NCBI GenBank assembly: GCA_964016885.1
Contig: OZ024742.1
Coordinates: 81,344,001-81,408,000, forward strand
Direction: 5' to 3'
Length of the DNA: 64,000 bases
Source of the DNA: Eledone cirrhosa
Taxonomy: Eukaryota
Part shown: positions 14,277-63,845 of the stretch, in pieces
Layout: each line of letters starts with the position of its first letter
Numbering within the stretch: the stretch's first letter is position 1
Notes under the pieces: model-generated
What the model was told of the DNA's origin: nothing
Database searches by the model: none
The model's input: the letters and a program-made list of their open reading frames with translations, nothing else
Program-made: the position numbers and the translations under genes

Positions 14277-14453
14277 GCTTATTTTTCAGTAAAAAAATGG
14301 TAGAAAACTTTAAGCGTTTTTCGGAAACAATTCGTGTCGCAAGAGAGGGTGTATATGTTATTGAAACAAGCACAAAGAAACCTCTGCAACATCTGCTTAT
14401 TTCAAAATCTTATGCTGCATTTGGCTGACATGCTTGAAATACATTTTTCGAAA

Positions 14454-14507
14454 ACTAGAATGAAGAGGTTTTTATCCCCGATTGAACCTGGGACTCACAT
14501 ACACAAA

Positions 14508-14580
<73 letters not shown>

Positions 14581-14689
14581 GGGGAGGGGCGTGCATGTGT
14601 GTGTGCCTGTAGGTGTGTGTGTGCCTGTAGGTGTGTGTGTGTGTGTGAGTCCCAGGTTCAATCGGGGATAAAAACCTCTTCATTCTAGT
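14454..14689. repeat. Palindrome with 46-bp perfect arms flanking (TA)n/(TG)n
   Basis: actagaatgaagagg...gggactcaca (14454-14499) and its exact reverse complement (14644-14689). Confidence 0.9.
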
Positions 14690-15028
14690 GTTGATTTAGA
14701 CATTTTTTTTACTGCTATTTCTAGCCTCATCATATACCCATTGCATTAACCTATTATATATAGGGTTATGTGGTCGTTTTATAATTCAACAAAGCAACGT
14801 GTTGGAGAGCAGGTCGTTTCGCCCTCAAAGTGGTATGTACACATTTTTCGCAAATTATTCCTCTGTCGAAAAAAAGAACGAATTCTTACATTGTTGCTTA
14901 GTTGAGTTGATAACAAACCCATATAGGGCAACGACTATTCCAAACTCAAATATAATTTTATAATCCAGAGAAAGATAGCATAAAATCAATTAAATAATTA
15001 AATGTAATCTAATCTTGGTCATTTTTAT

Positions 15029-20723: not shown

Positions 20724-22246
20724 TGACAATAGGGAGAAAAAGACGATTATTTGGGAAACAAATATTCTTTTTTCCTTTTTTATCTTTTTCACTTTTTCTC
20801 TTTTTTCTGAGTTACAAAATGTTTAAAACAAAATATTGTAATTTGTGTGAAGTGTTAAGGTATTAGTTAATTTATTTATTAATTAACAATGGCATTTATT
20901 TATTTATTTATATATTTTATAATTGTCTATTACCGGCTTCACCATTTTTATGAATTATCAAAAGGGGGAATATGTATTGGTGTAGAATGGTGATGTTAAA
21001 CATGTTAACGAAATGGTGAAGAAAGAATAATGTTATTTACAAACAAGATTTTTGAAGTGAAAAGAAAAGAGAAAAAAACGGGGGATAATGTGGAACATAA
21101 GGCAATGGGAATGAAAAAAATAATAATATTATTTACAGGCATAGTTCTTGAAGATCAGCTGTTCAAAATGTGTTAATATTACAAGAGTGCTTAGTTGATC
21201 CATGATGGAGGCAAATTGGTAGTCTGGGGTTTGATATGATTTCTTTTTTTAGAGAGTTAATATGCAGGGGGAGGTAATTCAGGCTGGTCAGGTAGGTGAG
21301 AGAGGGTATATAATGTATATAAGAAAAACGGATTAGGTAGGGTGTGAGGGAGGTAACTCTTTAGAGAAACAGGTATTTGGATTTGGTTCCTTGTTCGTTC
21401 CAGTTTTAGTTTAGTCCGACGTTTAGTGCATTAAGTAGTGGTTGGAATTTGTTAATGAAGTACGTTTCCTTATTGGTACGTTGGATGAAATTAGCGTTGT
21501 CTATGAATTTATAAATGGGGAAAATGTTAAAGTTTGGATGTTGGTTGCGTGCCCAATTGGTGATATGATCACGAAACGCAATCTTTCTGTATTCTTGTAT
21601 TTTGATTTGTGATCTACGGACCTTCATCCGTTTTCGGAGGCGGTTTTTTGTCTGTCCTATGTAGTGCACTTGATAACCTGAGCAGGTCAAAACATAGATT
21701 AGGTTTTCAGATGCACATGTAAAGTTGTGTTTAACTGTGAAATGTTTTCCTTGTTTAAAATGGATTGTTGAACTTTCTATTAGATTTATGCATATGCCAC
21801 AGTTGGGCCTTCTGCATTTTGTTACTGTAGGGTTCATTGTAACGTTTGGTTGGATTTTGGCTTGTGTGAGGATGCTTTTCTATGGATTTATGTTGTCTTT
21901 TGCTTTTTATCATGTTGTAAGTTTGGAGGATTTTGTTCATTCTTGGGTCTCTTTTTAGCAAATGAATGTTCTGGAGGATGGTGTCGAATGCCTATTTTTT
22001 GAGGGGGTTGTGTGTGGAGATGTATGGTAGAGTTTTCTGTTGCGGTTCATTCATGGGTTAGGGGTGTTGAGTTCCTGGATGTTGAGTTTTAGGGCACGTT
22101 TGAATCCATTGTTGATTAGGGATGGTGGGTAGTTTCTGCTGATAAGTGTGTTCTTTAATTATTCTAGTCGTGTGTACCATGTGTATTTATCTGAAACTAT
22201 TGTGGAGATCCTTTTGGATAGTTTATAAGGAATTGCCATTTTAGTA
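20724..22246 (-). mobile_element. PLE family 3 (Cys-linker GIY-YIG type), left arm of inverted dimer
   Basis: ORF 21406-21837: KCRRPNCGIC...FTCASENLIYVLTC...HYIGQT...RKRM...ETYFINKFQPLLN. Confidence 0.85.
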
Positions 22247-22292
22247 AACTTAATAAGTATATCTATACTTTCATGCCATGAAAGTATAGATA

Positions 22293-23974
22293 GACACATT
22301 GAGTTTCAAACACTTCTAAATATACTGAAAACAAACTTACAATTTACAATGGATTACAGCCATGAACAACTCCCTTCCTCGATATCCTCATCAAGAAAAC
22401 AAACAACAAAATTGAAAGAGACATATACAACAAACCACTGACTCCAAACAATATCTTCCATTCAACTCGTGCGATCCTCGCCATACCAAAATGGCACTCC
22501 TAATAACCTAGCCAGAAGGATCTGCACAATAGTTTCAGATAAATACACATGCTACACACGACTAGAAGAATTAAAAAACACACTTATCAGCAGAAATTAC
22601 CCACCGTCCCTAGTGCCATAAAGCTCAACATCCTGGAACTCAGACACCCCAAACCCAGGAATGAACCGCAACAGAAAACTCTACCATACATCTCCACACA
22701 CAACCCCCTCAACAATGAGGCATTCGGCACCATCCTCCAGAACATGCCTTTACTAAAAAGAGTCCCAAGAATGAAACAAAATCCTCCAAACACACAACAT
22801 CATAGAGAGCAAACGACAACCTAAATCCATATAAAACATCCTCACACAAGCCAAAATCCAAACGACCTCACAATTAACCCTACAGTAAAGAAATGCGGAA
22901 GGGCCAACTGAGGCATATGCATAAATCTAATATAAGGTTCAACATACCATTTTAAACAAAGAAAACATTTCACAGTTAAACACAACTTTACATGTGCATC
23001 TGAAAACCTAATCTATATTTTGACCGGATGATGTTGTCAAGAGCACTACATAGGAGAGACAAAAAGCAGCCTGCGTCAACGTATGACCGCCCATAGATCA
23101 CAAATCAAAATACTGGAATACAGAAAGATTGCGTTTAGTGAACATATTGCCAACTGTGCACGCAACCAACATCCAAATTTTAAAATTTTCCACATTTACA
23201 AATTCATAGACAACGCTACTTTCATCCATCGTACGAATAAGGAAGCTTACTTCATTAACAAATTCCAACCTCTAATTAATGGACTAAAGATCGGACTAAA
23301 CTAAAACTGGAACGAACAATGAACGAAATCCAAATACCTATGTTTCTCTAAAGAGTTACATCCCTACACCCTACCTAATCCTTTTTCTTATATAAATTAT
23401 ATACACTCTCTCACCTACCTGACCACCCTGAATTACCTCCCCCTGCATATTAACTCTCTAAAAAGAGAAATCATATCAAACCCCACACTACCATTTGGAT
23501 CAAGCACTCTTGGATAAGCACTCTTGCTATATTTGGATAAGCACTCTTGCATTATTAACACATGTTGAACTTTTTATCTTCAAGAATTATGCCTGTAAAT
23601 AATATTATTATTTTTTTCATTCCCATTGCCTTACGTTTCACATTACACCACTTTTTTTCTTTTTTCTTTTCACTTGAAAAACCTTGTTTTTAAATAACAT
23701 TATTCTTTCCTCGCCATTTCGTTAACATGTCCAATACCACCATTCTACATGAATACATATTCCAACCTTTGATAATGCGTAACAATGCTGAAACCGGTAA
23801 TAGACAATTATTAAATATATAAATAAATATATAAATGCCATTGTTAATGAATAAATAAATTAACTAATACCTTAACACTTCAAACAAACTAAAATGTTTT
23901 GTTTTAATCATTTTCTAGACCAGAAAAAAGAAAAAAAATATTTTTCTTCATAATAATCGTCTTTTTTTCCCTAC

Positions 23975-26911: not shown

Positions 26912-29900
26912 TTGTTATTCTTTTAGGAGGGTCATGTTGCCAATAAGAAACACACGCACCAGTTGCTTTCACTTTAATTTATTATTATAATAAATTTATA
27001 ATAAATTTATAAATTTATAAATTTATAAATTTCTGTTTGGTTGGTTGATTCCACAACCAGATAGTTGTTTATATATTGTCATAGTTTTTTCGTCACACAC
27101 TCTGTGACCTCTTCAGTGACTGGGGATTCCTTTCTTTGTTTCTGTGCCTCTCCGTTGTGCTGTCCTACGCCATTTTGTTTCTCTGTGTGTGTTGTGTACT
27201 CAGTCTGCGCATGCGCCACATCCGGGTGTCTGTGTGTGTTTATGTTCATTTATTTATTTGTTTATTTACATGTTACTGGTTGGTTGGTTGTTCTATGTGT
27301 GTGTGTGTTTTCATTTTGTCCTTAATTGTAAGTTGTGATGTTGCTGTTCCACTCATATTTTCTATTTAATTTTGGTTGTAATTCTTTTATGTTTATTGCC
27401 TCTGTAATTTGTGTAAACATTGCGCCTTTTCTGTGTGTAGATTCTATTTTTATTTCTATGTTCTCTAATTTACCCTTGTGTTCTATTTTAGCATGTTGGT
27501 AGAGTACAGATGATTCTTTACTATCTTGAAGGTCTCGCAAGTGTTCATTTATCCGTTCCACTACACTACGACCTGTCTCACCTATGTACACTATATTTTT
27601 GTCTCTACATTGTCCTTCAGTACATCTTATGCTATACACTACATTTCTAGTTTTATAGTTAATATGGGGGTCTATTTTACCGGTTATACATTTCTTATCT
27701 ATACATGAGGGTCTTAGAAAAGGGTATGTCTTGCTAATAAGTGTTTTTACGGAGATACCTGGTCTTTCTAATATCTTAATATTGAGTTTATGTTTATTTA
27801 GGGCCCTTCAAAATTTGTAAGCTAATTCACCTCTAGGGGTTGTATCGATGAACATTGCACTCTGGTATTTATTGCTATCATACCATGAGTTTATTATATT
27901 AGCCTTGTTCCTAGTTCTTTCTATTCTATTCCAAAATTTGCTCCTATACAAGGGGCGGGTCCCATTTATGTCATTATTTATTATTTTTTCCCATTAGGTT
28001 CTGGCTCCTCTATACACTCTGATTTTATCTCTCTGATTGTAGCCAGAGAACTGCATACGGTGGATGAAGTGTTGTATGTGTCTCTCTAGTTCTTCGGGGT
28101 TGCACATGCGGGACACGTTTCTGATCACCCGTAACAAATCCGCAATCAGTATGTTGATTTTGGTATGGTCCGAAACGGCCGAGTTTCGGTGGATCAGATG
28201 TTTGGAAGTCATGGGTTTGGCATAATGGGAATGGAGGATTTGTTTTTTGTTATTAATGGTATCTAACCAGAGATCTGTGTCTAGTACAGGTAATCGATGG
28301 TTGGGGTGTTTACTTGGGTAGTCTATAGTAACACTAATGCTCTGGTGGATGGAGTTAGCTATTTGCTGGATGCTTTCCATTGTCTTTTTCTCTAGTTCCT
28401 GACTGTTCTCTAGTGGGGGTGTCTTAACTACGATGTTTATATCAAGTAGCGGGAGTACATTATCAGGGTTAAGGGGTCTTCTAATTGTTCTTTAAGCTTA
28501 AGCTTACGTCTACTGTCCCACCATACCATGAATAAATTAGCTATGTCGCCTGCAATGCTAACACCAATGGCTGCTCCTTCCTCTTGGGCATATGTTTTTC
28601 CATTAAATTTGAAAATATGTTCCTTAAGGGTTAGTTTTATGCTGGCCCTACCGCATGTGCAATCATTTTCTTCAGTTCATCGTGGTTTTTGGGTGTCCGT
28701 ATGGCTCTGGTCCACCCGTTCCATCTATCTGTGTGTGTTTTCTTGGCCATTGAGGTAATGGTAGGTGGTCTGCCTCTTGCTGGTCTTGTAGGGCACATGT
28801 TGCTAAGGTCATATGTGTCTAGGTAATTATTACTATAGGTAAGTTTAAGTAGGAGTCCCAGCTCACTGGTATCAATCCCACGGAATTTAACATTGCTCTC
28901 ACTGATCATTTCTACGCATTTCTCCACAGCAAAATCCACGTCAATAGATGGACACAGGGACACAACATCCATACTACCTATTATGCAGTTTGTTAGGTCC
29001 CTAGATCGGTTACTCACGCCGATTCTGCTGAGGAGGTCCTCCGTGCTGTCACATACATCTGGGGACATTTCAATGATGGGACGTATGGTCAGGGAGAGGA
29101 AGTAGGACAGACTGTAGTTACTAGCAATGTTAGCTCCACAGACTGACCGTGTTGGTGGTCCCGCGACAGGGTCACAGCCCGTTTTATGGTCTTTTCGAAG
29201 CCCATACAACGCCCGCACGTCATAGTTCCAGGCCTGGAAGTTGTTGGCACTCCTTTTGTTGGGCTGCATTATATTCGTCCACATCCCCATATGGGCATTG
29301 AAGGCTTTTTCTCTATCCGCATGCTCCTGTGGTGTTACCTCTCTTGTGTTAGTGATGTGGGGTTGCATTGCCTGGATGTAGTTTGGCAGGCTGTCAACCG
29401 ACATTCTGCCAGACTTGTCTGTTGGAAAGCATGCTATCTCTCCATTACGCGAGCGCTGCATGAGCTTACGCAAGCCATTTGCAGATTTTTCTCCCAGTTG
29501 CTGGGCCTCCATTCTATTATGCTTCTTGCTATACTGTTCTATAATATTTCTAAGTTCGCATCTAGCTATACTAAATTGTGCTTCTGTTTGTTCATCGACC
29601 TGCGACGGCAATTGCATGCGTTTGTTAAATGGTAAAATCGTGGCGTGGACTCGTCGCAGGTCGAAGATTTATCGGAGGGATTATAAAAACTAGAGTTCCA
29701 GGCTGCTGCTTTATGTGTACTAGTGCTATTGTTATTGTTAGTTGTGTTGTTTCTATTTCTATTTCCACCAACAGCCTCATGGTTGTTTCAATGTCTCTCA
29801 TAATTACTCCTGTCTCTTTCCACTGGCTCATTGTTGTTATCTACCCTATTTTGAGTGTCTGTGTGTTCGTCTTGGTTATTTTCTTTGTCCTTAGTCGCCC

Positions 29901-30143
29901 TTCTCCTTTTAATCCTATTACTTTCCCTTATTTCTGTGATTTCTGTGCTACTGTCATTACTTATTCTCTGTGTCTGTGTGTTTGTTAAGATTGTGGTGGT
30001 GGTGACAGGCATTGAATGTGTGTGTGTTGTTGTTGCTGATGTGTGCTGTTGTTGATGTGTGTTGTTGTTGTCTCCGTGTGTGTTATTATTGTTGTGTGTG
30101 TTGTTATTGTTGTTTGTGTCTGCGTGTCTGTTGTTGTTGTTTC
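26912..30143 (-). mobile_element. PLE family 1, left arm of 6.6-kb inverted dimer
   Basis: ORFs 28637-29617 (PPTRSVCG, GSMDVVSLCPSI), 27994-28380 (LPVLD) and 27322-27639 (YIGETGRS); hammerhead at 27078-27120. Confidence 0.92.
27078..27120 (-). ncRNA. Minimal type I hammerhead in PLE pLTR
   Basis: GUCA CUGAAGA G GUCACA GAGUG UGUGAC GAAA AAAC UA UGAC. Confidence 0.7.
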
Positions 30144-31022
30144 TGACGAGTTCAACAACAACAACAACACAAATATATACGGCAACACAATAATAGATAA
30201 CGATGAATTATCTGTATTACAACTTCCACCTAAGTATGCGACGTTCAAGAAGGTAAATATGATTAGTTGATTATAGAAAAATCATTTACAAAACTACGCT
30301 GGAGCCTCAAAATCAAAAACAAAAACAAAAGCAACAATATACGCACACACATATACAACACACAGCCCAACAACAACAGACACACAGCCACAAACAACAA
30401 CAACAGACACGCAGACACAAACAACAATAACAACACACACAACAATAATAACACACACGGAAACAACAACAACACACATCAACAACAGCACACATCAACA
30501 ACAACAACACACACACATTCAATGCCTCTCACGACCACCACAATCTTAACAAACAAACAGACACAGAGAAGAAGTAATGACAGTAGCACAGAAATCACAG
30601 AAATAAGGGAAAGTAATAGGATTAAAAGGAGAAGGGAGACTAAGGACAAAGAAAATAACCAAGATGAACACACAGACACACAAAATAGGGTAGATAACAA
30701 CAATGAGCCAGTGGAAAGAGACAGGAGTAATTATGAGAGACATAGAAACAACCATGAAGCTGTTGGTGGAAATAGAAATAGAAACAACACAACTAACAAT
30801 AACAATAGCACTAGTACACATAAAGCAGCAGCCTGGAACTCTACTTTCTATAATCCCTCGGATAAATCGTTCGACCTGCGACGAGTCCACGCCACGACTT
30901 TACCATTTAACAAACGCACGCAATTGCCGTCGCAGGTCGATGAATAAACAGAAGCACAATTTAGTATAGCTAGATCCGAACTTAGAAATATTATAGAACA
31001 GTATAGCAAGAAGCATAATAGA

Positions 31023-32156
31023 ATGGAGGCCCAGCAACTGGGAGAAAAATCTGCAAATGGCTTGCGTAAGCTCATGCAGCGCTCACGTAATGGAGAGATA
31101 GCATGCTTTCCAACAGACACGTCTGGCAGAATGTCGGTTGACAGCCTGCCAAACTACACCCAGGCAATGCAACCCCACATCACTAACACAAGAGAGGTAA
31201 CACCACAGGAGCAAGAGGATAGAGAAAAAGCCGTCAATTCCCATATGGGGATGTGGACGAATATAATGCAGCCCAACAAAAGGACTGCCAACAACTTCCA
31301 GGCCTGGAACAATGACGTGCCGGCGTTGTATGGTCTTCGAAAAGACCATAAAACGGGCAGTGACCCTGTCACGGGACCACCAACACGGCCAGTCTGTGGA
31401 GCTAACAGTGCTAGTAACTACAGACTGTCCTACTTCCTCTCCCTGATCATACGCCCCATCATTGAAATGTCCCCAGATGTATGTGACAGCACGGAGGACC
31501 TCCTCAGCAGAATCGGCGTGAGTAACCGATCTAGGGACCTAACAAACTGCATAATAGGTAGTATGGGTGTTGTGTCCCTGTATCCATCTATTGACGTGGA
31601 TTTTGCTGTGGAGAAATGCGTAGAAATGATCAGTGAGAGCAATGTTGAGTTCCGTGGGATTGATACCAGTGAGCTGGGACTCCTACTTAAACTTACCTAT
31701 AGTAATAATTACCTAGACACATATGACCTTAGCAACCTGTGCCCTACAAGACCAGCAAGAGGCAGACCACCTACCATTACCTCAATGGCCAAGAAAACCC
31801 ACATGGATAGATGGAACGGGTGGACCAGAGCCATACGGACACCCGAAAACCACGATGAACTGAAGAAACTGATTTCACATGCGGTAGGGGCCAGCATAAA
31901 CCTAACCCTTAAGGAACATATGTTCAAATTTAATGGAAAAACATATGCCCAAGAGGAAGGAGCAGCCATTGGTGTTAGCATTGCAGGCGACATAGCTAAC
32001 TTATTCATGGTATGGTGGGACAGTAGACTTAAACTTAAACTTAAAGAACAATTAGTAGACCCCTTAACCCTGATAATGTACTCCCGCTACGTTGATGATA
32101 TAAACATCGCAGTTAAGACACTCCCCTCTAGAGAACAGTCAGGAACTAGAGAATAA
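31023..32156 (+). pseudogene. PLE reverse transcriptase core
   Basis: PTDTSGR, LYGLRKDHK, PPTRPVCG, GSM(G)VVSLYPSI (catalytic D changed to G in this arm), QEEGAAIG, YSRYVDDI. Confidence 0.9.
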
Positions 32157-32318
32157 CAATGGAAAGCATCCAGCAAATAGCAAACTCCATCCACCAGAGC
32201 ATTAGAGTTACTATAGACTACCCAAGTAAACACCCCAACCATCGATTACCTGTACTAGCTCTGGTTAGATACCATTAACAACAAAAAACAAATCCTCCAT
32301 TCACACTATGCCAAACCC

Positions 32319-33224
32319 ATGACTTCCAAACATCTGATCCACCGAAACTCGGCCGTTTCGGACCATACCAAAATCAACATACTGATTGCGGATTTGGTAC
32401 GGGTGATGAGAAACGTGTCCCGCATGTGCAACCCCGAAGAACTAGAGAGACACATACAACACTTCATCCACCGTATGCAGTTCTCTGGCTACAATCAGAG
32501 AGATAAAATCAGAGTGTATAGAGGAGCCAGAACCAAATGGGAAAAAATGGTAAATAATGACATAAATGGGACCTGCCCCTTGTATAGGAGGAAATTTTGG
32601 AATAGAATAGAAAGAACTAGGAACAAGGCGAATAGAATAAACTCATGGTATGATAGCAATAAATACCAGAGTGCAATGTTCATCGATACAACCCCTAGAG
32701 GTGAATTAGCTTACAAATTTAGAAGGGCCCTAAATAAACATAAACTCAATATTAAGATAGTAGAAAGACCAGGTACCTCCGTAAAAACACTTATTAGCAA
32801 GACATACCCTTTTCTAAGACCCTCATGTATAGATAAGAAATGTATAACCTGTAAAATAAACCCCCATATTAACTGTAAAACTAGAAATGTAGTCTATAGC
32901 ATAAGATGTACTGAAGGACAATGTAGAGACAAAAATTTAGTGTACATAGGTGAGACAGCTCGTAGTGTAGGGGAACGGATAAATGAACACTGGCGAGACC
33001 TTCAAGATAGTAAAGAATCATCTGTACTCTACCAACATGCTAAAATAGAACACAAGGGTAAATTAGAGAACATAGAAATAAAAATAGAATCTACACACAG
33101 AAAAGACGCAATGTTTAGACAAATTACAGAGGCAATAAACATAAAAGAATTACAACCAAAATTAAATAAAAACACACACACACAGAACAAACAACCAACC
33201 AGTAACATGTATATAAACAAATAA
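32319..33224 (+). pseudogene. PLE RT thumb plus GIY-YIG endonuclease
   Basis: RMQFSGY...CIDKKCITC...NVVYSIRC...VYIGETARSVGERINEH...RQITEAINI. Confidence 0.9.
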
Positions 33225-42470: not shown

Positions 42471-42678
42471 TATATACATATATCCAAAATCAATTTAATT
42501 AAATTAAATTAAGGGAGTCATGTCCGAGACATGCGCCATATCGACCGTAAAATAAGGTCAAAGATTCCAATGTGATTGTTTCATGTGTTTATTTAAAATA
42601 TATATATGTCAATCAATTTCTAGTTGATATATATACATATATATATACACCAAAGCCCAAGTCATTACACCTGATGGG

Positions 42679-43618
42679 ATGACAGAGTTCTTTGCGATAC
42701 TGGCTGGAGTGCCCCAGGGAGATACATTGGCTCCCTACCTTTTTATCATCGTAGTGGACTATTGTATGCGCCTTGCACTGGAGAAACACCAGGACACTGG
42801 CTTTACTGTAGCACCGGCTCAGAGCAGGAGAGTTGGGGCGAAAAAGGTATCGGATGCTGAATTTGCCGACGACATAGTTTTGGTGACAAATACAGTGAAG
42901 GAGGCAGAGGATTTGATGCGGGAGGTTGAGACTGTGTCGATGAGTGTGGGGCTGAGAATGAATGAGACTAAAACAAAATATCTGGTAGAGAATGTTGAGA
43001 AGCCAGAGGGGATCACTAATGTAGGCGGGAAGCCGCTGGAATTGGTTGAGGACTTCCTGTATTTGGGAGCAAAGATTGGGAATACGGAAGATGATGTGGT
43101 TGAGAGGAAGAGCAAGGCCTGGGCGGCGTGTCACAGCTTGAGATCGGTGTGGAAGTCGGACCTTCGTAGAGACCTGAAAATCCGCCTCTTCATTGCTGTA
43201 GTGGAGTCTGTGCTGCTGTATGGGTCTGAGACTTGGACACTGACCAAGAGACTCACTCAGATGGTGGATGGGTGCTACACGAGAATGCTGAGGATGGCTC
43301 TGAACATTAATCAGTATACACTGAGGATGAAAAACTCAGAGCTGTATGGGAGCATCCCAAAAGTCAGCTCAAAAGTGACACAGAGGAGACTGAGGTTGGC
43401 TGGACATGCTCACCGACATCCAGAGTTGACATTGCACTCAGTGGTCCTTTCGGAGCCCCTACATGGACACACTAGAAGAGGAAGACCAAGGTTAACATAT
43501 GTTGATGCCCTAAGGACAGACACTGGTCTGTTGGAGATGCAGGATATGGCAGCGATAATGGGGGACAGAGACCGCTGGAGAGAACTCGTCCATGGATCTC
43601 GGGAATTTTACCCGCCTT

Positions 43619-43620
<2 letters not shown>
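42679..43620 (+). CDS. 5'-truncated RTE-clade LINE, uninterrupted RT C-terminal ORF (313 aa)
   Basis: GVPQGDTLAPYLF, FADD, VEDFLYLG, VESVLLYGSETW, RRLRLAGH, RRGRP, DRDRWRELV. Confidence 0.9.
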
Positions 43621-47645: not shown

Positions 47646-49060
47646 AGCTATGTCTGCTCTGCTTATTTCTAGTCCGCTAGATATTAACACTTCCATTATT
47701 TAACACTGCAGGCACAAGTATTGAGTACATTTGCATATGTTAATGGCAAAATAACTATATGTATCGCCTATCTCTTCTTCCCTCTCTCGATACTTAAATA
47801 CTATATATATATATATAAAGATATATATATGTGTGTGTGGGTGTGTGTGTGCATATGTATATATGTGGGCGTTTGTGATCTATATACACTGGTCATAGAC
47901 ACACACATATTATATACACAAACACTCCCATATATATGTATGCACAACAGCACCACCAGCTCTCTTCACATCACCCTCTCTCTATGTCACTCTTTTAATT
48001 TATTCTGTCACAACCACTATCTGTTTCTCTCTATCCTTTTCTCTCTCTGTTTATTAAGGTAAACCCCATATCTCGGGAGCCCATGCTCCGATTTACGCGA
48101 AACTTGTTTTATTCGATTTGTATTCCCATTTCAGGGGCAACGTCCTTTCAAAGTATTTTCCCATTATGCACCCGTTTGGCTGTATTACATTACAGACAAG
48201 CAAACAAGCAATCAGTGAGTTTTAGTAATATATATATATATATATAATTGAGCGACGGATCTTGTCTAATAGAATGGACACTGCTTCGATCTGTCACTCA
48301 CTCACTCAATAACCTATTAAGTTCTTATTTTAAATATTCTAACCGAACTGGTTAGATTGCACATATACATTACTCACTAATGAAGACGACTTCGTGTGGG
48401 TATAAATGAGATACCATGACCGACGCATCTGTTTCTACAGTTCCTACCCAATGGCAATGCCCCGACTGTACACCCAAGTGCAGAATATTAGGTAATTTTA
48501 ATATACATTAAGTAATTTGACGTGGGACCGTGTCGTCAGAGTGTGTTACCCTCGCTGTAATGGGAAGAACAGTATGGCGTGCCAATATATTCAATTACTA
48601 GTTGCAAGTGAATGTAGTAGTTTTCAAATTCTAATGAGGCGCGACGTCCCATCAATGGTAAGATAAGCCAGGCCTGACCATTTACAGGAACCCACATTCA
48701 CAACTGACCCATCGAAAGAAGTGCTTTCCAATAGAAAACAGATACAGAAATAAATCGAAGTAAAAAAGCAGACGGAGAAAGTTCGACTCACAATTTAAAA
48801 ACAAAATAGGTCTATGGAAGTTAAAATAATTAATGTGTACATTATATATATATATGTATATATATATGTAGAAAAATCTACCAAAAGTTTACGGTAGTGT
48901 CCAATCCGTATGAAGAACTCAATGTAATCCGGATATCATGAAAAGAGAAGATGCATTCAAAAACTACTTTCGGTGAAAAATAAACGGAAAACAGAGTCAA
49001 GATAAATTATTAAAAAAATAATGAATAAACAAAGAAAGAGTTCCTTATATTAAAGAAATT

Positions 49061-49200
49061 CATTATTTTACGATCGTTTCTAGGATATATATGTGTTAGA
49101 GTTGGTATGCATATTCTATAGATCTATGTACAATATTTATACAAACTATCAGAGGGAATATACATACCTACACATATATATGCTGTCTTCAGAAATAATG
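49061..49200 (-). ncRNA. Type I hammerhead with 8-bp stem I and ~105-nt stem II domain
   Basis: CAUUAUUU CUGAAGA cagc AUAUAUAUGUGU...ACACAUAUAUAU ccua GAAAC GAUC GUA AAAUAAUG. Confidence 0.7.
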
Positions 49201-49837
49201 ATATTTGTTTATTGAAAAAAACAAAGATTCAATACAATAGGTCTGTTTGAGAACAGGTTGTGAATTGACCAATATAGAGATAGGGAGGGTCAGGAAGGTA
49301 ATATAGTAGTAGAAGAACCTTAAATTATGGGTAGAGGAAGGTAGATTTCAGTTTTGGATGAAAAAGAATATTATGAATGAAGGATTATTTTAAGGAAGAA
49401 ATAGGTCTTATGCTGACCTCAGAAATAATTGTATTTGTTCATTGAATAAAACCAACAAAGATCTAATATATTCTGTCTGTTTGGTAAGAGGTTTAGAATT
49501 AACCAATGGAGAGTTAATAATTGGCCAAATGGTAAAATAGTAGTAATTGAAGCTTATTTTAGGGGTGAAAATAGGTCAGGTGGTCAATAAAAGGTATACA
49601 AGCAGTTGCTGTTATAAAATAGTAATGCCAGTACAACTATCCAAGGTGACTAAAGTTTTAAGATAAGAATGTTAGTGAAAAAAATACATCTATGAAAAGA
49701 ATATAAATTAATTTAATTGATGGGTATATTTATATTGATAAAATTATACTAATACATATAGATATGATAAATAAGAGTTAGATGCAGTTGAAAAGTGCTG
49801 TTAAAGATGAGGGGAAATTAAAAGAATATAAAAATAA

Positions 49838-50084
49838 TATATATATATATATATATATACTTATACATGTATATATATATACACATACATATACACATAT
49901 ATATATACATACATATACACATATATATATATACATATACACATATATATACATATACACATATATATATACATATACACAGATATATATATATATACAT
50001 ATACATATACACATATATATACATATACACTTATACATATACACATATATATACATATACACATATATATATATACATATACAC

Positions 50085-50116
<32 letters not shown>

Positions 50117-50138
50117 ATATATATATACATATACACAC

Positions 50139-50193
<55 letters not shown>

Positions 50194-50530
50194 TATATAC
50201 ATATACACATATATATACACATATACACATATATATACACATATACACATACACATATACACATATACACATACACATATACACATACACATATACACAT
50301 ATATATATACACATATACACATATACACACATATATATATACATACACACATATATATATATACATATACACATATATATATATACATATACACATATAT
50401 ATATACATATACACATATATATATATATACACATATACACATATATATATACATAGATACATACATGCATACATACATACATACATACACATATATATAT
50501 ATAGACACACATATACCCCTATATATACAT
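49838..50530. repeat. Long compound (TA)n/(CATATA)n microsatellite
   Basis: Directly visible. Confidence 0.95.
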
Positions 50531-50560
50531 ATAATTATTGGGGGGGGGGGATCAAATGAA

Positions 50561-51423
50561 TTAGTGAGAAATAGCAAATATATACAGTTTTCAAGGAACA
50601 CAGAGTCACAACCCGAAGCCAAAGCACTATATATGTTCACGTAATGGCATCAGCTCTAGGAAATGATACTTGTAAGAAGGAAAGCAAAATTATGTAGTTC
50701 ATCAGCAGCAGAATACCAATTATAGGTCAACCAAACTAAAAATAGTATTATATCAACTTCCAAAGTGTATACCAATTAGGTTTATAATCTTTAAAGCAGA
50801 ACCATGCAGTTCATCAGTACAACACCAATTGTAGGTTAACTAAATCAAAAATAAATCACAAATCAACTTCTAAAGTGTATATTAACTAGGTCTACAATAT
50901 CTAAAGGCTCCTCTCAGTCTATGATTACACGATATTACCAATTCCTGTCGCTTATTTAATAGGACATCCTTAGATTTCATTATTTCAAAATATTGAAATA
51001 ATGAAATCTAAGGACATCCTATCAAATAAGCGACAGGAACCAACAATATCGTGCAATCACAAACCGAGAAAAACCTTCAAACACTACAAATCCAACCAAT
51101 ATACACCCCAGAAATCAACCTATAATTCACTCCCAATTTAGCCAACCCACAATTAACATTCTACCACAGATGAACAACATAATTCTGCTTCAAACATTAC
51201 AAACCCAATCAATATACACTCCAGAAACCAATACAATACCGCCTTCAATTTAGTCAACCTACAATCAACATTCCACCACTGATGAACTACACAACTCCGC
51301 TCCCCCTCCCACATATATCACTTCCCAAAACCGATACCATCAAGAAAACATATATAATGCTTCAACTTCAGGTTACGACTCCATGCTCCTTGAACACTAC
51401 ATATATTTACCACTTCTCACTAA
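50561..51423 (-). other. ~430-bp-arm palindrome with directional A>G (minus strand) hypermutation
   Basis: Centre at ~50990-50995; arm mismatches are A.C on the + strand and G.U on the - strand; each arm contains two ~115-bp tandem units. Confidence 0.85.
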
Positions 51424-51631
51424 TAAATCCAATCCCCCTGAAGACAGCATATATATGTGTAGGTATGTATATTCCCTCTGATAGTTTGTATAAATATTGT
51501 ACATAGATCTATAGAATATGCATACCAACTCTAACACATATATATCCTAGAAACGATGGTAAAATAATGAATTTTTTTAATATAAGGAACTATTTCTTTG
51601 TTTATTCATTATTTTTTAAATAATTTATTTG

Positions 51632-51662
<31 letters not shown>

Positions 51663-51742
51663 ATATATGTATATATATATATGTGTGTGTCTGTGTGTGT
51701 GTATGTGTGCGTGTGCGTGTGTGTGCGTGTGTGTATGTGTAA

Positions 51743-51912
51743 TATTTGTTTCTACATTAGGCACAAGGCCAGCAATAACCCAGTGCATTACTGGTACTTT
51801 ATTTTATCGACCCCGTAAGGATGAAAGTCAAAGTCAACCTCGGCGGGATTTGAACTCAGATCGTAAAGGGACGTAACTATGCTGGAAAGCATGGCGTCCG
51901 ACCCTCTACCGA
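51743..51912 (-). mobile_element. SINE family A, well preserved
   Basis: ctggtactttattttatcgaccccgtaaggatgaaagtcaaagtcaacctcggcgggatttgaactcaga. Confidence 0.85.
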
Positions 51913-60949: not shown

Positions 60950-63845
60950 CGGCTTATTACAAATAGCAACTCGCAAAATAACACTTCATATAACAGATTA
61001 AGGCTATAGACATATGAATCGGAATGTAACCTGTGAACTTGTTCCTGGGCAAAATTTTTCGAACAGACATGACCTCATTGCCAGAGTTTTCACACTGAAC
61101 CTGGATAAACTCATGGCTTTCATAAAAAAGGTCAGGTATTTGGGCTGTAAAATGTGACATGTTCAACGTCGAACGGCAAAAATGAGGGGTGCAACATGCT
61201 CACATTTTGATTTGGTTAGCTGATAAAATCAATTCAAATGCCATAGACGGCTTCATTTCCGCTGAAATCCCTAACCCAGCAACTGACCAGGAATTACATG
61301 ACATCGTCAAAGCTAACATTGTCCGTGTGCGTCGAGTCCTAATGAGCATCACACTTATCTGAAGGGGGGGGGGGGGGGGGGGGTCGTGCAATAAATGTGT
61401 TGACCAGACTCAGACTGGTGGCGACCGGTACCCCCTGTACAGGCAGAGAAGGCCCGAGAACGGTGGCTTTACCACAACAGTAAGGGGGAAGTAAAATCCA
61501 CAATAGATGTTCAACGCCCACATCAACGTTGAGTTGTGTAACTCCGTCAAGTCGATAAAATACATATGCAAATATGTAAATAAGGGCTCTGATGCCGCAA
61601 TGTTCACATTTCAAGCTGAAAATAGTAGGGACGAGGTCACAGAATAACTGGCGAGGCGGTACATCAGTAGCAACGAAGCTTTTTGGCGCCTATTTGGTTT
61701 AGCCCTACACCAACGTCACCCTGCCATCGTACAGCCTGCGATACATTTGGAAAATGGGTAAAGGGTTTACTTTACGGACCAAACCGCCGCCAAGTTGACC
61801 GCCGATCCGAAAAAGACCACTCTGAGGGGTTTCTTCAAACTTTACCAGTTCGATACATTTGCGCAAACAATTGTGTACTCCCATGTTCCATACTACTTTA
61901 TATGGTCGAAAAACACTTGGGTGCGAAGTAAGTCAGGTCAGCTGTCTTGGAAGGGTTTACACTGTGCCCCCAAGTCAGCATGAGTGCTTTCATCTCCGCC
62001 TTCTTCTGCATGAAGGTGTAGACCCACAAAGTTTTCAGGACCTCAAAACTGTTGATAGAGAAATAGGTGATACGTACCGGGAAGCCTGCTTTAAGCGTGG
62101 TCTTTTGGAAGATGATTCGCAATGGCATTCCACTTTAGCAGAGGGTGCTTTGTTGAAATAACCTAAAGGGCTACGGGAACTCTTTGCCATTTTGCTTCAA
62201 AAGTGTGAATTGGGTGATCCCAAATCTTTATGGGTCAAGTACAGAGACTTCTTGATTGAGGACTTCCCGTGGAAGTTGGTTACAGCGATATTATCTACAA
62301 CAGGGCACTCATTGATATCGAGGACGCCCCCCTCGACATGGGTGGGAGTGAGTTGGCGACGTATGGCTTGCCGTCAACCGTCAGAGAGAAAGCTAACATG
62401 TTGGCCTCGGATTTGTTGCGGGAAACAGTATATGACATCGAATCTCTTTCCCAATGCTTAGAGGAAAATGAGCCCAAACCTCTGTCGGACCAAAGGTTGG
62501 CCTGTTTAACTATATCATTGACGCGGTTCAAAATCAGACTGTGGGTATTTACTTTCTTGATGTTCTTGGGGGTACCGGAAAAACTTATGTAACGAAATTG
62601 ATTCTCGCTAAGATTCGTCAGGAGAAAAAAATTGCGTTGGCCGTTGCATCGTCCGGGATCGCTGCTTCTTTGCTGCCGGGAGGCAGGACAGCACGTTCAA
62701 CCTTTAATAAACTCCCCTTGGATTTAGTAAAAACTGAGACACCAACATGCGACATCAGCAAGAGTTCACACGAAGCTTTGGTTCTCAAAAAATGTTGCCT
62801 CATTGTTTGGGATGAGTGCACAGTGGCACACAAGTGTGCCCTTGAGGCATTGGACAGAACCCTGGAAGACATTAGGGATTCTACAGCTCCTATGGGTGGC
62901 GTAACCGTTCTGCTATCGGAATTTTCGGCAAATGCTGCCTGTCATCCCCAAAGGGACAAGAGCTGATGAAGTGCGTGCCTGCCTTAAATCGTCCCTGTTG
63001 TGGCTCCAGGTGAAGAGTTTGTACCTGAGCACAAATATGCGTGCTCATTTGCATGGTGACAACATCTGCAGCATTTGCTCAGAATATTTTAACACTTGGT
63101 GAGGGCAAGGTCCCTGCTGATGACAGGGGCGGCATGGCAATCGACTCCCTGTGCAACATTGTGAACAGCCCTTCTGACCTGTGGGAAGCAGTTTTTCCTA
63201 ATGTCTCATCTAACTTTAAAAACCTCGATTTACTCAGCGAAAGAGCCATCATCGCTTCGAAAAATACCATGGTTAATTTTATTAACGAGCAGCTGATTGA
63301 GAAGATTCCCAGTAAAGAACACATCTTCAAATCTATCGAGCGGACATCAGACCCCGAGGATATCGTTAATTATCCGTTTGAATTATTAAATTCCCTTGAG
63401 ACCCCAGGGCTTCCACCTCACATTCTTAAGCTTAGGGTTGGCTGTCCCATTATGCTAATAAGGAACTTGTGTCAACCAAAGCAGTGCAACGCTACTCGCA
63501 TGGTCGTCAAGTCACTGACGCCCCACTTGATTGAGGCCACCATTGTAACGGAGTGCGGGAGAGAGGAAAATGTTTTCATTCCAAGGATGAACCTTTTCCG
63601 CTCAACTCAGATATCCCGTTCGATTTCCGGCGATCCCAATTCCCGGTGAGATCATGTTTTGCCATGTCCATTAACAAGTCACAAGGGCAAACATTGTCGG
63701 TGGCGCGCATCCATTTGGTGGAGCCATGCTTCTCCCATGGCCAACTTTATGTTGCCTGTTCCCGCGTAGGGAGCAGAAATGGACTGTTTGCTTACACTTC
63801 TGAAGGGATGACACGCAATATCGTCTACAAAGAGGTGCTAGAGAT
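60950..63845 (+). pseudogene. Helitron Rep plus PIF1-family helicase pseudogene
   Basis: FLDVLGGTGKT, AVASSGIAASLLPGGRTA, IVWDE, GLPPHILKLRVGCPIMLIRNL, RSQFPVRSCFAMSINKSQGQT, FSHGQLYVACSRV; multiple stops and frameshifts. Confidence 0.92.

Follow-up and report, generated by a model that had tools for sequence, protein, structure and literature searches.

Within a 64,000-nucleotide stretch of Eledone cirrhosa DNA (contig OZ024742.1; the whole stretch is called the window below), one truncated insertion of a Penelope-like element (PLE) contains a long hairpin that carries dense A>G changes on a single strand. We consider it highly probable that ADAR hyper-edited a fold-back transcript of this PLE, which was afterwards copied by reverse transcription into the DNA of the germ line as a truncated insertion. 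With much the same confidence, we regard the locus as a genomic fossil of RNA hyper-editing that is real and well polarised, and apparently rare.

Polarity, limits and frequency of the edited hairpin

The hairpin occupies 50552-51437 of the window, and 120 of the 137 mismatches between its halves are A.C on the plus strand and G.U on the minus strand. The minus strand, which is the RNA sense for the main copy of the PLE, folds with 120 G-U pairs, as against 0 for the plus strand. The majority of 27 other family copies, most of which differ from that majority by about 1%, served as the reference. In all 120 A.C columns the family majority was A or T; therefore the changes run from A to G when read on the minus strand, and C>T deamination or a RIP-like change is ruled out. 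The left arm departed from the majority by 49 T>C and 1 A>G changes and the right arm, after reverse complementation, by 73 A>G and 1 T>C, on a background of 8/4660 and 9/4858 (17/9518 in total) in the 27 copies. Counted on the minus strand, A>G affected 49 of 179 adenosines (27%) in arm 1 (50551-50990, minus; PLE sense strand in the RNA) and 73 of 172 (42%) in arm 2 (50993-51437, minus; PLE antisense strand in the RNA), giving 122 changes in all. About 17 differences other than A>G in the arms indicate that ordinary mutation acted as well.

The changed adenosines were most often preceded by U (71/158, 45%), followed by A (45/132, 34%) and C (5/27, 19%), and were hardly ever preceded by G (1/33, 3%; Fisher p=1e-5), with no preference for a 3' G (p=0.5). 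This fits the invertebrate pattern in PMC5625713, in whose account upstream-G depletion is a shared ADAR signature and the 3'-G preference is absent in invertebrates. The changes cover both hairpin arms from end to end and cease outside them. Compared with 8 family copies, the tail (1 difference in 132), the pLTR, the 3' UTR (1 T>C in 637 aligned positions) and the right 191-bp arm were unedited. The internal microsatellite showed no clear C excess, its C/(C+T) being 0.33 in the window versus 0.20-0.40 in other copies. Dense A>G on one strand, restriction to the duplex and 5'-G depletion are all features of an ADAR hyper-editing product, and this combination fits the proposal of a first-pass annotation that an ADAR-edited fold-back RNA was copied into DNA.

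Three runs of one sample yielded contigs that span 50676-51022 and 51000-51467 and show 0-1 differences from the window; they leave out 50545-50675 and extend 29-30 letters past 51437. Their depth is 4-8, as for single-copy sequence, versus about 10^5 for family sequence. That these contigs match the edited sequence argues against an assembly error, and an assembly artefact is thus not supported, yet the match gives no independent support because the one sample, of unrecorded library type, may be the assembly's source. At position 50820 one run has C and two have G, the family state; the difference may represent two alleles of the insertion, but each state comes from single contigs of low depth.

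The family is abundant, with 1019 matches to a 35-mer of the pLTR arm and 527 matches to the hairpin halves at the ORF end. Among 269 aligned pieces from 80 loci, the tract appeared in the window's two hairpin arms only, and none was found in the 178,561 aligned bases that these loci contribute outside the window. The genome was also searched with patterns that accepted G in place of any A but had a fixed G at one UA site. In four such single-site surveys, the fixed-G patterns returned no copy but the window at the ORF end (527 matches without the fixed G) and, at the pLTR (1019 matches), nothing in one survey and two single-change copies in the other. The sensitivity of each survey was about 35-55% for window-like copies spanning the site, and lower for those with other mutations. 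In these surveys of the ORF end and pLTR of this PLE family a handful of edited copies could escape, but a large hyper-edited population in this family is unlikely. The edited composite was single-copy in the searches made, with one complete hammerhead and no tandem hammerhead repeats, and is neither a non-autonomous family nor a retrozyme. The expectations that other copies would carry A>G-skewed cargo and that a PLE-ribozyme-ADAR cycle diversifies the genome were thus not borne out, as no second hyper-edited copy came from the 80 loci or the four surveys.

The rest of the window holds no other edited hairpin among its non-simple inverted pairs. A different PLE-like element at 27359-33172, with RT and C-terminal GIY-YIG-like pieces, has 2.8-kb inverted arms that are 96% alike and lack an A.C skew (22 vs 13 of 87 mismatches). 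Inverted arms of about 1.45 kb at 20793-23937, which are 86% alike and include part of a GIY-YIG-like ORF (21406-21879), show no mismatch skew either. A small inverted pair at 14451-14692 has an excess of G.T-type mismatches (46 vs 8 of 76) within TA/TG simple repeats, which is probably compositional. The window also contains what we take, from motifs, to be an RTE-like RT fragment (42628-43620) and, presumably, Helitron/PIF1-like helicase fragments (62472-63649).

The insertion and its parent PLE family

The hairpin is part of one 5'-truncated insertion of a young, ORF-bearing PLE at 48868-51628. The first-pass annotation had placed an element at 49002-51628; the observation was real, but the start lay too far to the right, the true left edge being near 48868. 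The insertion begins at a left (TA)n target site (48843-48867), and family ends abut (TA)n. On the minus strand there follow a "tail" of about 135 bp, which marks the long 3' end and is found at the left end of the insertion only (48868-49001), the unedited 3' pLTR core that forms the left inverted arm (49002-49200), and the unedited 3' UTR of the family body (49201-49836). A family-internal TA/CA microsatellite (49837-50536; 693 bp here vs mostly 150-360 bp in other copies) and a family G/C run at the hairpin base (50540-50550) lead to the two edited arms, which meet at a fold-back junction (50989-50996) containing two bases absent from the parent. On the plus strand, an unedited, inverted pLTR piece that is truncated at its 5' side and finishes with the short 3' end (51438-51628) is bordered by the right (TA)n target site (51627-51645).

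Arm 1 contains the last ~36 ORF codons and the start of the 3' UTR. Because 48868-50990, microsatellite included, is collinear with family sequence at other loci and the hairpin halves code for the ORF end, the hairpin is not foreign cargo and both sides belong to one insertion. By its sequence, the hairpin consists of the end of the PLE's own ORF with the start of the 3' UTR, followed by a duplicate of these in inverted orientation. The earlier description of an edited "cargo" in a non-autonomous element therefore gave way to that of PLE body in one truncated copy of an ORF-bearing family, and a separate non-autonomous family is not supported, no daughter of the edited form having been found in the searches made. 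Two separate insertions, which had been considered on account of the microsatellite, are ruled out, as the microsatellite occupies a constant position within the family copies that were compared.

The parent ORF is represented by a 734-aa open stretch in L067 with YRDD and IVY..YIG...R..H..E..N motifs. It has 71 homologues, the only named one being from O. bimaculoides, and in other copies it is found upstream, in register; either hairpin half encodes its last ~36 residues. A Pfam search gave no match for the parent ORF itself and a weak GIY-YIG match for the homologue P0002 (E 0.012). On motifs, the parent is assigned to the EN+ PLEs, with a single ORF encoding RT and then a C-terminal GIY-YIG-like domain, and the C-terminal position of the endonuclease rules out a Naiad identity. 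The family also has the EN+ PLE layout, with pLTRs from partial tandems (L067, L073), an inverted 5'-truncated copy and a one-ended tail. The finding of this ORF-bearing parent supports the PLE origin proposed earlier.

As judged by motifs and (TA)n targets, the family appears to match the Hydra clade as described by Craig et al. 2021 (PMC8557442). The parent ORF has Hydra-type RWR, SDKT, CNCRNKANC (CxCx5C), CRLC (CxxC) and CNH (CxH) motifs, no CCHH, and one Cys inside the GIY-YIG core; the family inserts into (TA)n and carries a canonical hammerhead, as that clade does. The Hydra-clade features given in PMC8557442 are a C-terminal GIY-YIG-like domain, RW[R], DKT, a CxCx5C linker, CxxC and CxH towards the C-terminal end, a pLTR hammerhead, (TA)n targets, an inverted 5'-truncated copy and a one-ended tail. 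An Octopus bimaculoides Hydra family is listed there; however, the hammerhead sequence tabulated for Hydra-1_oBim is not the same as the window's. The window element further differs from the clade in its tail (30-40 there vs about 135 bp here), its stem II of about 100 nt and its 3' UTR of about 1.5 kb with an internal microsatellite, and the passages of PMC8557442 on the clade do not mention edited copies.

The inverted arms at 49002-49192 and 51438-51628 are 191 nt each, 98% complementary and different at 4 sites, and neither shows an A>G or T>C excess over 8 family copies, in agreement with the near-identical, unedited ~190-bp arms first described. A type I hammerhead motif with a stem II of about 100 nt and a palindromic short stem III lies at 49061-49200 (minus), where all core parts were located: stem I 5' strand (49200-49193), CUGAAGA (49192-49186), stem II, GAAA (49080-49077), the C-GAUC-G stem III, GUA with its A at 49069, and stem I 3' strand (49068-49061). 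The motif thus has its CUGANGA and GAAA core, stems I-III and NUH site, the cut is predicted after 49069, and the hammerhead fold lies 1.7 kcal/mol above the MFE (-37.0 vs -38.7). An Rfam search gave no hammerhead match at the gathering score or at E<=10, and the models probably miss it because stem II is so long. The + arm, whose first letters are CTGAAGA, lacks the 5' strand of stem I and has GATG instead of GATC, so that its stem III is also broken. The first-pass annotation was therefore right about the complete type I motif on the minus-strand arm, the start of the + arm, and the pairing of a hammerhead-bearing 3' pLTR with a truncated inverted pLTR at the other end.

The layout agrees with the PLE hammerheads tabulated in file S2 of PMC8557442, in which PLE-X1_cBra also has the C.A pair after CUGAAGA. 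We regard the motif as the family's ordinary pLTR hammerhead, with predicted cleavage, and as a passenger of the pLTR; the history proposed below needs no cleavage by it. In Anolis, PMC11167929 reports that the PLE ribozyme cleaved only with protein and that hammerhead cleavage was dispensable in vitro for the PAc protein. The stem I 3' strand of the family pLTR (L067 8727) is A/G polymorphic at a UA site (44 vs 66 pieces), the G form retaining a wobble pair.

A probable path from edited transcript to chromosome

In this PLE family, insertions frequently consist of a direct copy fused to an inverted one. We propose that transcription of an earlier locus of this kind ran across the inverted piece and on into the direct copy, which would give an RNA with a hairpin of about 440 bp followed by the 3' UTR, hammerhead and tail. 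The pattern found in the DNA (27% and 42% of arm adenosines changed to G, 5'-G avoided, unpaired parts unchanged) would then have been produced by ADAR. The PLE protein would have nicked a (TA)n site and initiated at the long site, copying the pLTR, the UTR and both edited arms with inosine read as G, and stopping at the G/C run. A second cDNA, started at the short site with the other target strand as primer, would have copied the pLTR only, back to CUGAAGA, before being joined to the first. More speculatively, I-U pairs might loosen the duplex and help the RT through.

The ends of the insertion bear on these last steps. Of 24 long family loci (L063-L091), most of them picked as inverted pairs, the 20 two-sided loci with both ends resolved all had one long tailed 3' end and one short end; long/long or short/short pairs were not found among them, and nearly all ends abut (TA)n. 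The window insertion obeys the same rule. In Anolis, the PAc PLE protein acts on both target strands, cutting and extending each, and two internal initiation sites define the tail (PMC11167929). The simplest reading is therefore of two cDNAs, a long one from the left (TA)n through both edited arms and a short one from the right that stopped at the stem I boundary. The 51438-51628 piece is thus likely to be a second cDNA for which the other target strand served as primer, and a short cDNA holding the pLTR only accounts for the unedited right arm. Such strict long/short pairing is of use as in vivo evidence that PLEs prime on two strands. The stem I boundary is also the commonest 5' end of pieces (18 at one coordinate), many of them beside a SINE-like insert.

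This SINE-like repeat of about 160 bp, present in the window at 51742-51900 (minus), is joined to the PLE exactly at the hammerhead stem I 5' strand, and such joins were also seen at L002, L007, L008, L012, L014, L074, L077, L080, L083, L088, L089 and L090. It occurs sometimes in arrays and gave no ARAGORN match. Its 3' end supplies a near-identical stem I strand, so stem I could still form, and it is also joined at an ORF-end site of similar sequence (L054).

No intact, unedited donor was found in this assembly. With two mismatches or A/G degeneracy allowed, the identical fold-back junction was found at one other locus only, L032/L090 (G000:C28:100189419), an unedited palindrome with deletions in one arm, three private variants common to both arms and a different allele from the window at one polymorphic site. 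These deletions, variants and allele rule it out, in its present state, as the direct donor. Next to the fold-back junction lies the one 10-mer of the element that could pair with the stem I 5' strand by full complementarity, and the SINE-like element joins there too; the shared junction may instead mark a hot spot, and the chances that the two loci had the same lost donor or used the same hot spot are about even. Junctions of other pairs are mostly asymmetric, L072 and L079 being near-symmetric.

The lack of an intact donor would also suit an in-place retro-conversion, in which the hairpin arose at this site during integration, the transcript it gave was edited, and the cDNA overwrote the resident copy by recombination. 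Likewise, the right end of the window insertion has the usual family layout, and the arms of L074, L078, L079 and L090 share private variants as homogenisation could yield. However, the shared variants are equally explained if both arms were copied from one template, and a read-through transcript would pair the 191-bp arms as well, yet these are unedited. The recombination would moreover have to tolerate 14-19% mismatch. Mismatch rejection in recombination is established. We therefore hold this history to be improbable.

A slightly poorer prospect is that the tract arose with no double-stranded RNA stage, either through a biased RT or because DNA or an RNA:DNA hybrid was deaminated during integration, even though ADARs are able to act on the DNA of heteroduplex model substrates (PMC12925331). 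All changes lie on the RNA-like strand and the first-strand cDNA (+) has T>C rather than A>G; C>T of opposite polarity is excluded by the ancestral states. Also against this reading, the tract and the self-complementarity end at exactly the same point, and no such tract occurs in the 80 other loci (178,561 aligned bases). Finally, a self-propagating non-autonomous hammerhead element that carries edited cargo in a recurring cycle has very little to commend it: the hammerhead-bearing arm occurs in about 1000 copies, fold-back loci are common (11 inverted pairs among the 94 matches listed on C1) and the window's junction recurs at a second locus, but the "cargo" is PLE body, daughter copies were not found, and the fixed-G surveys returned the window only, nothing, or two single-change copies.

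Significance and comparison with known systems

A-to-I editing is usually regarded as non-heritable, and this locus records about 120 edits of one RNA molecule in chromosomal DNA, with a non-viral retroelement as the route into the chromosome. The edited-transcript history has two implications: a duplex that has been hyper-edited is able to persist in the germ line and serve as a template for reverse transcription there, and a PLE RT is capable of copying round a hairpin of about 880 nt. Because the process looks rare in this PLE family, the locus proves a route rather than a major mutagenic force. It also provides a search recipe, namely to collapse A and G and inspect fold-back copies. We are doubtful that PLEs in general form a working route from editome to germ line, in which two-ended insertion continually generates fold-back loci, ADAR opens their hairpins far enough to let the PLE RT through, and inosine-scarred retrocopies have accumulated genome-wide across PLE families. 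If they did, scarred retrocopies would be low in number, found in high-editing animals and missed as unalignable to a consensus, and this locus would be the first dated example, its donor having left another descendant that is unedited.

The PLE layout and hammerhead (PMC8557442), the inverted-repeat hypermutation of avian retroviruses by ADAR and the editing of Penelope RNA are already known. In the literature searched, subscription journals excepted, no report of a chromosomal ADAR-hyper-edited PLE copy was found; supplements of editing surveys could contain cases. Hyper-editing of Penelope RNA in a lizard and very high hyper-editing in octopus have been reported (PMC5625713). The lizard case resembles ours in that PLE-derived double-stranded RNA is a major ADAR substrate with upstream-G depletion; those observations concern RNA reads, whereas ours concerns genomic DNA. 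Non-LTR retrozymes (bioRxiv 10.64898/2026.07.22.740005) share hammerhead-bearing, pLTR-related sequence, but are tandem non-autonomous units, unlike the single truncated copy of an ORF-bearing family in the window. APOBEC "DNA editing" of endogenous retroelements (PMC2873906; PMC4866542) is similarly a deaminase burst in a retroelement life cycle fossilised in a genome. By contrast, it yields G>A through C deamination on the cDNA, independently of a duplex, and here A>G arose on the RNA strand and is confined to a hairpin. ADAR-hypermutated avian retroviruses (Hajjar and Linial 1995; Felder et al. 1994, via PMC12925331) are also comparable, in that A>G passes through reverse transcription and affects almost 50% of the adenosines of an LTR or an inverted-repeat region. 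Those genomes are infectious, whereas the copy described here belongs to an endogenous, non-viral retrotransposon residing in a host chromosome.
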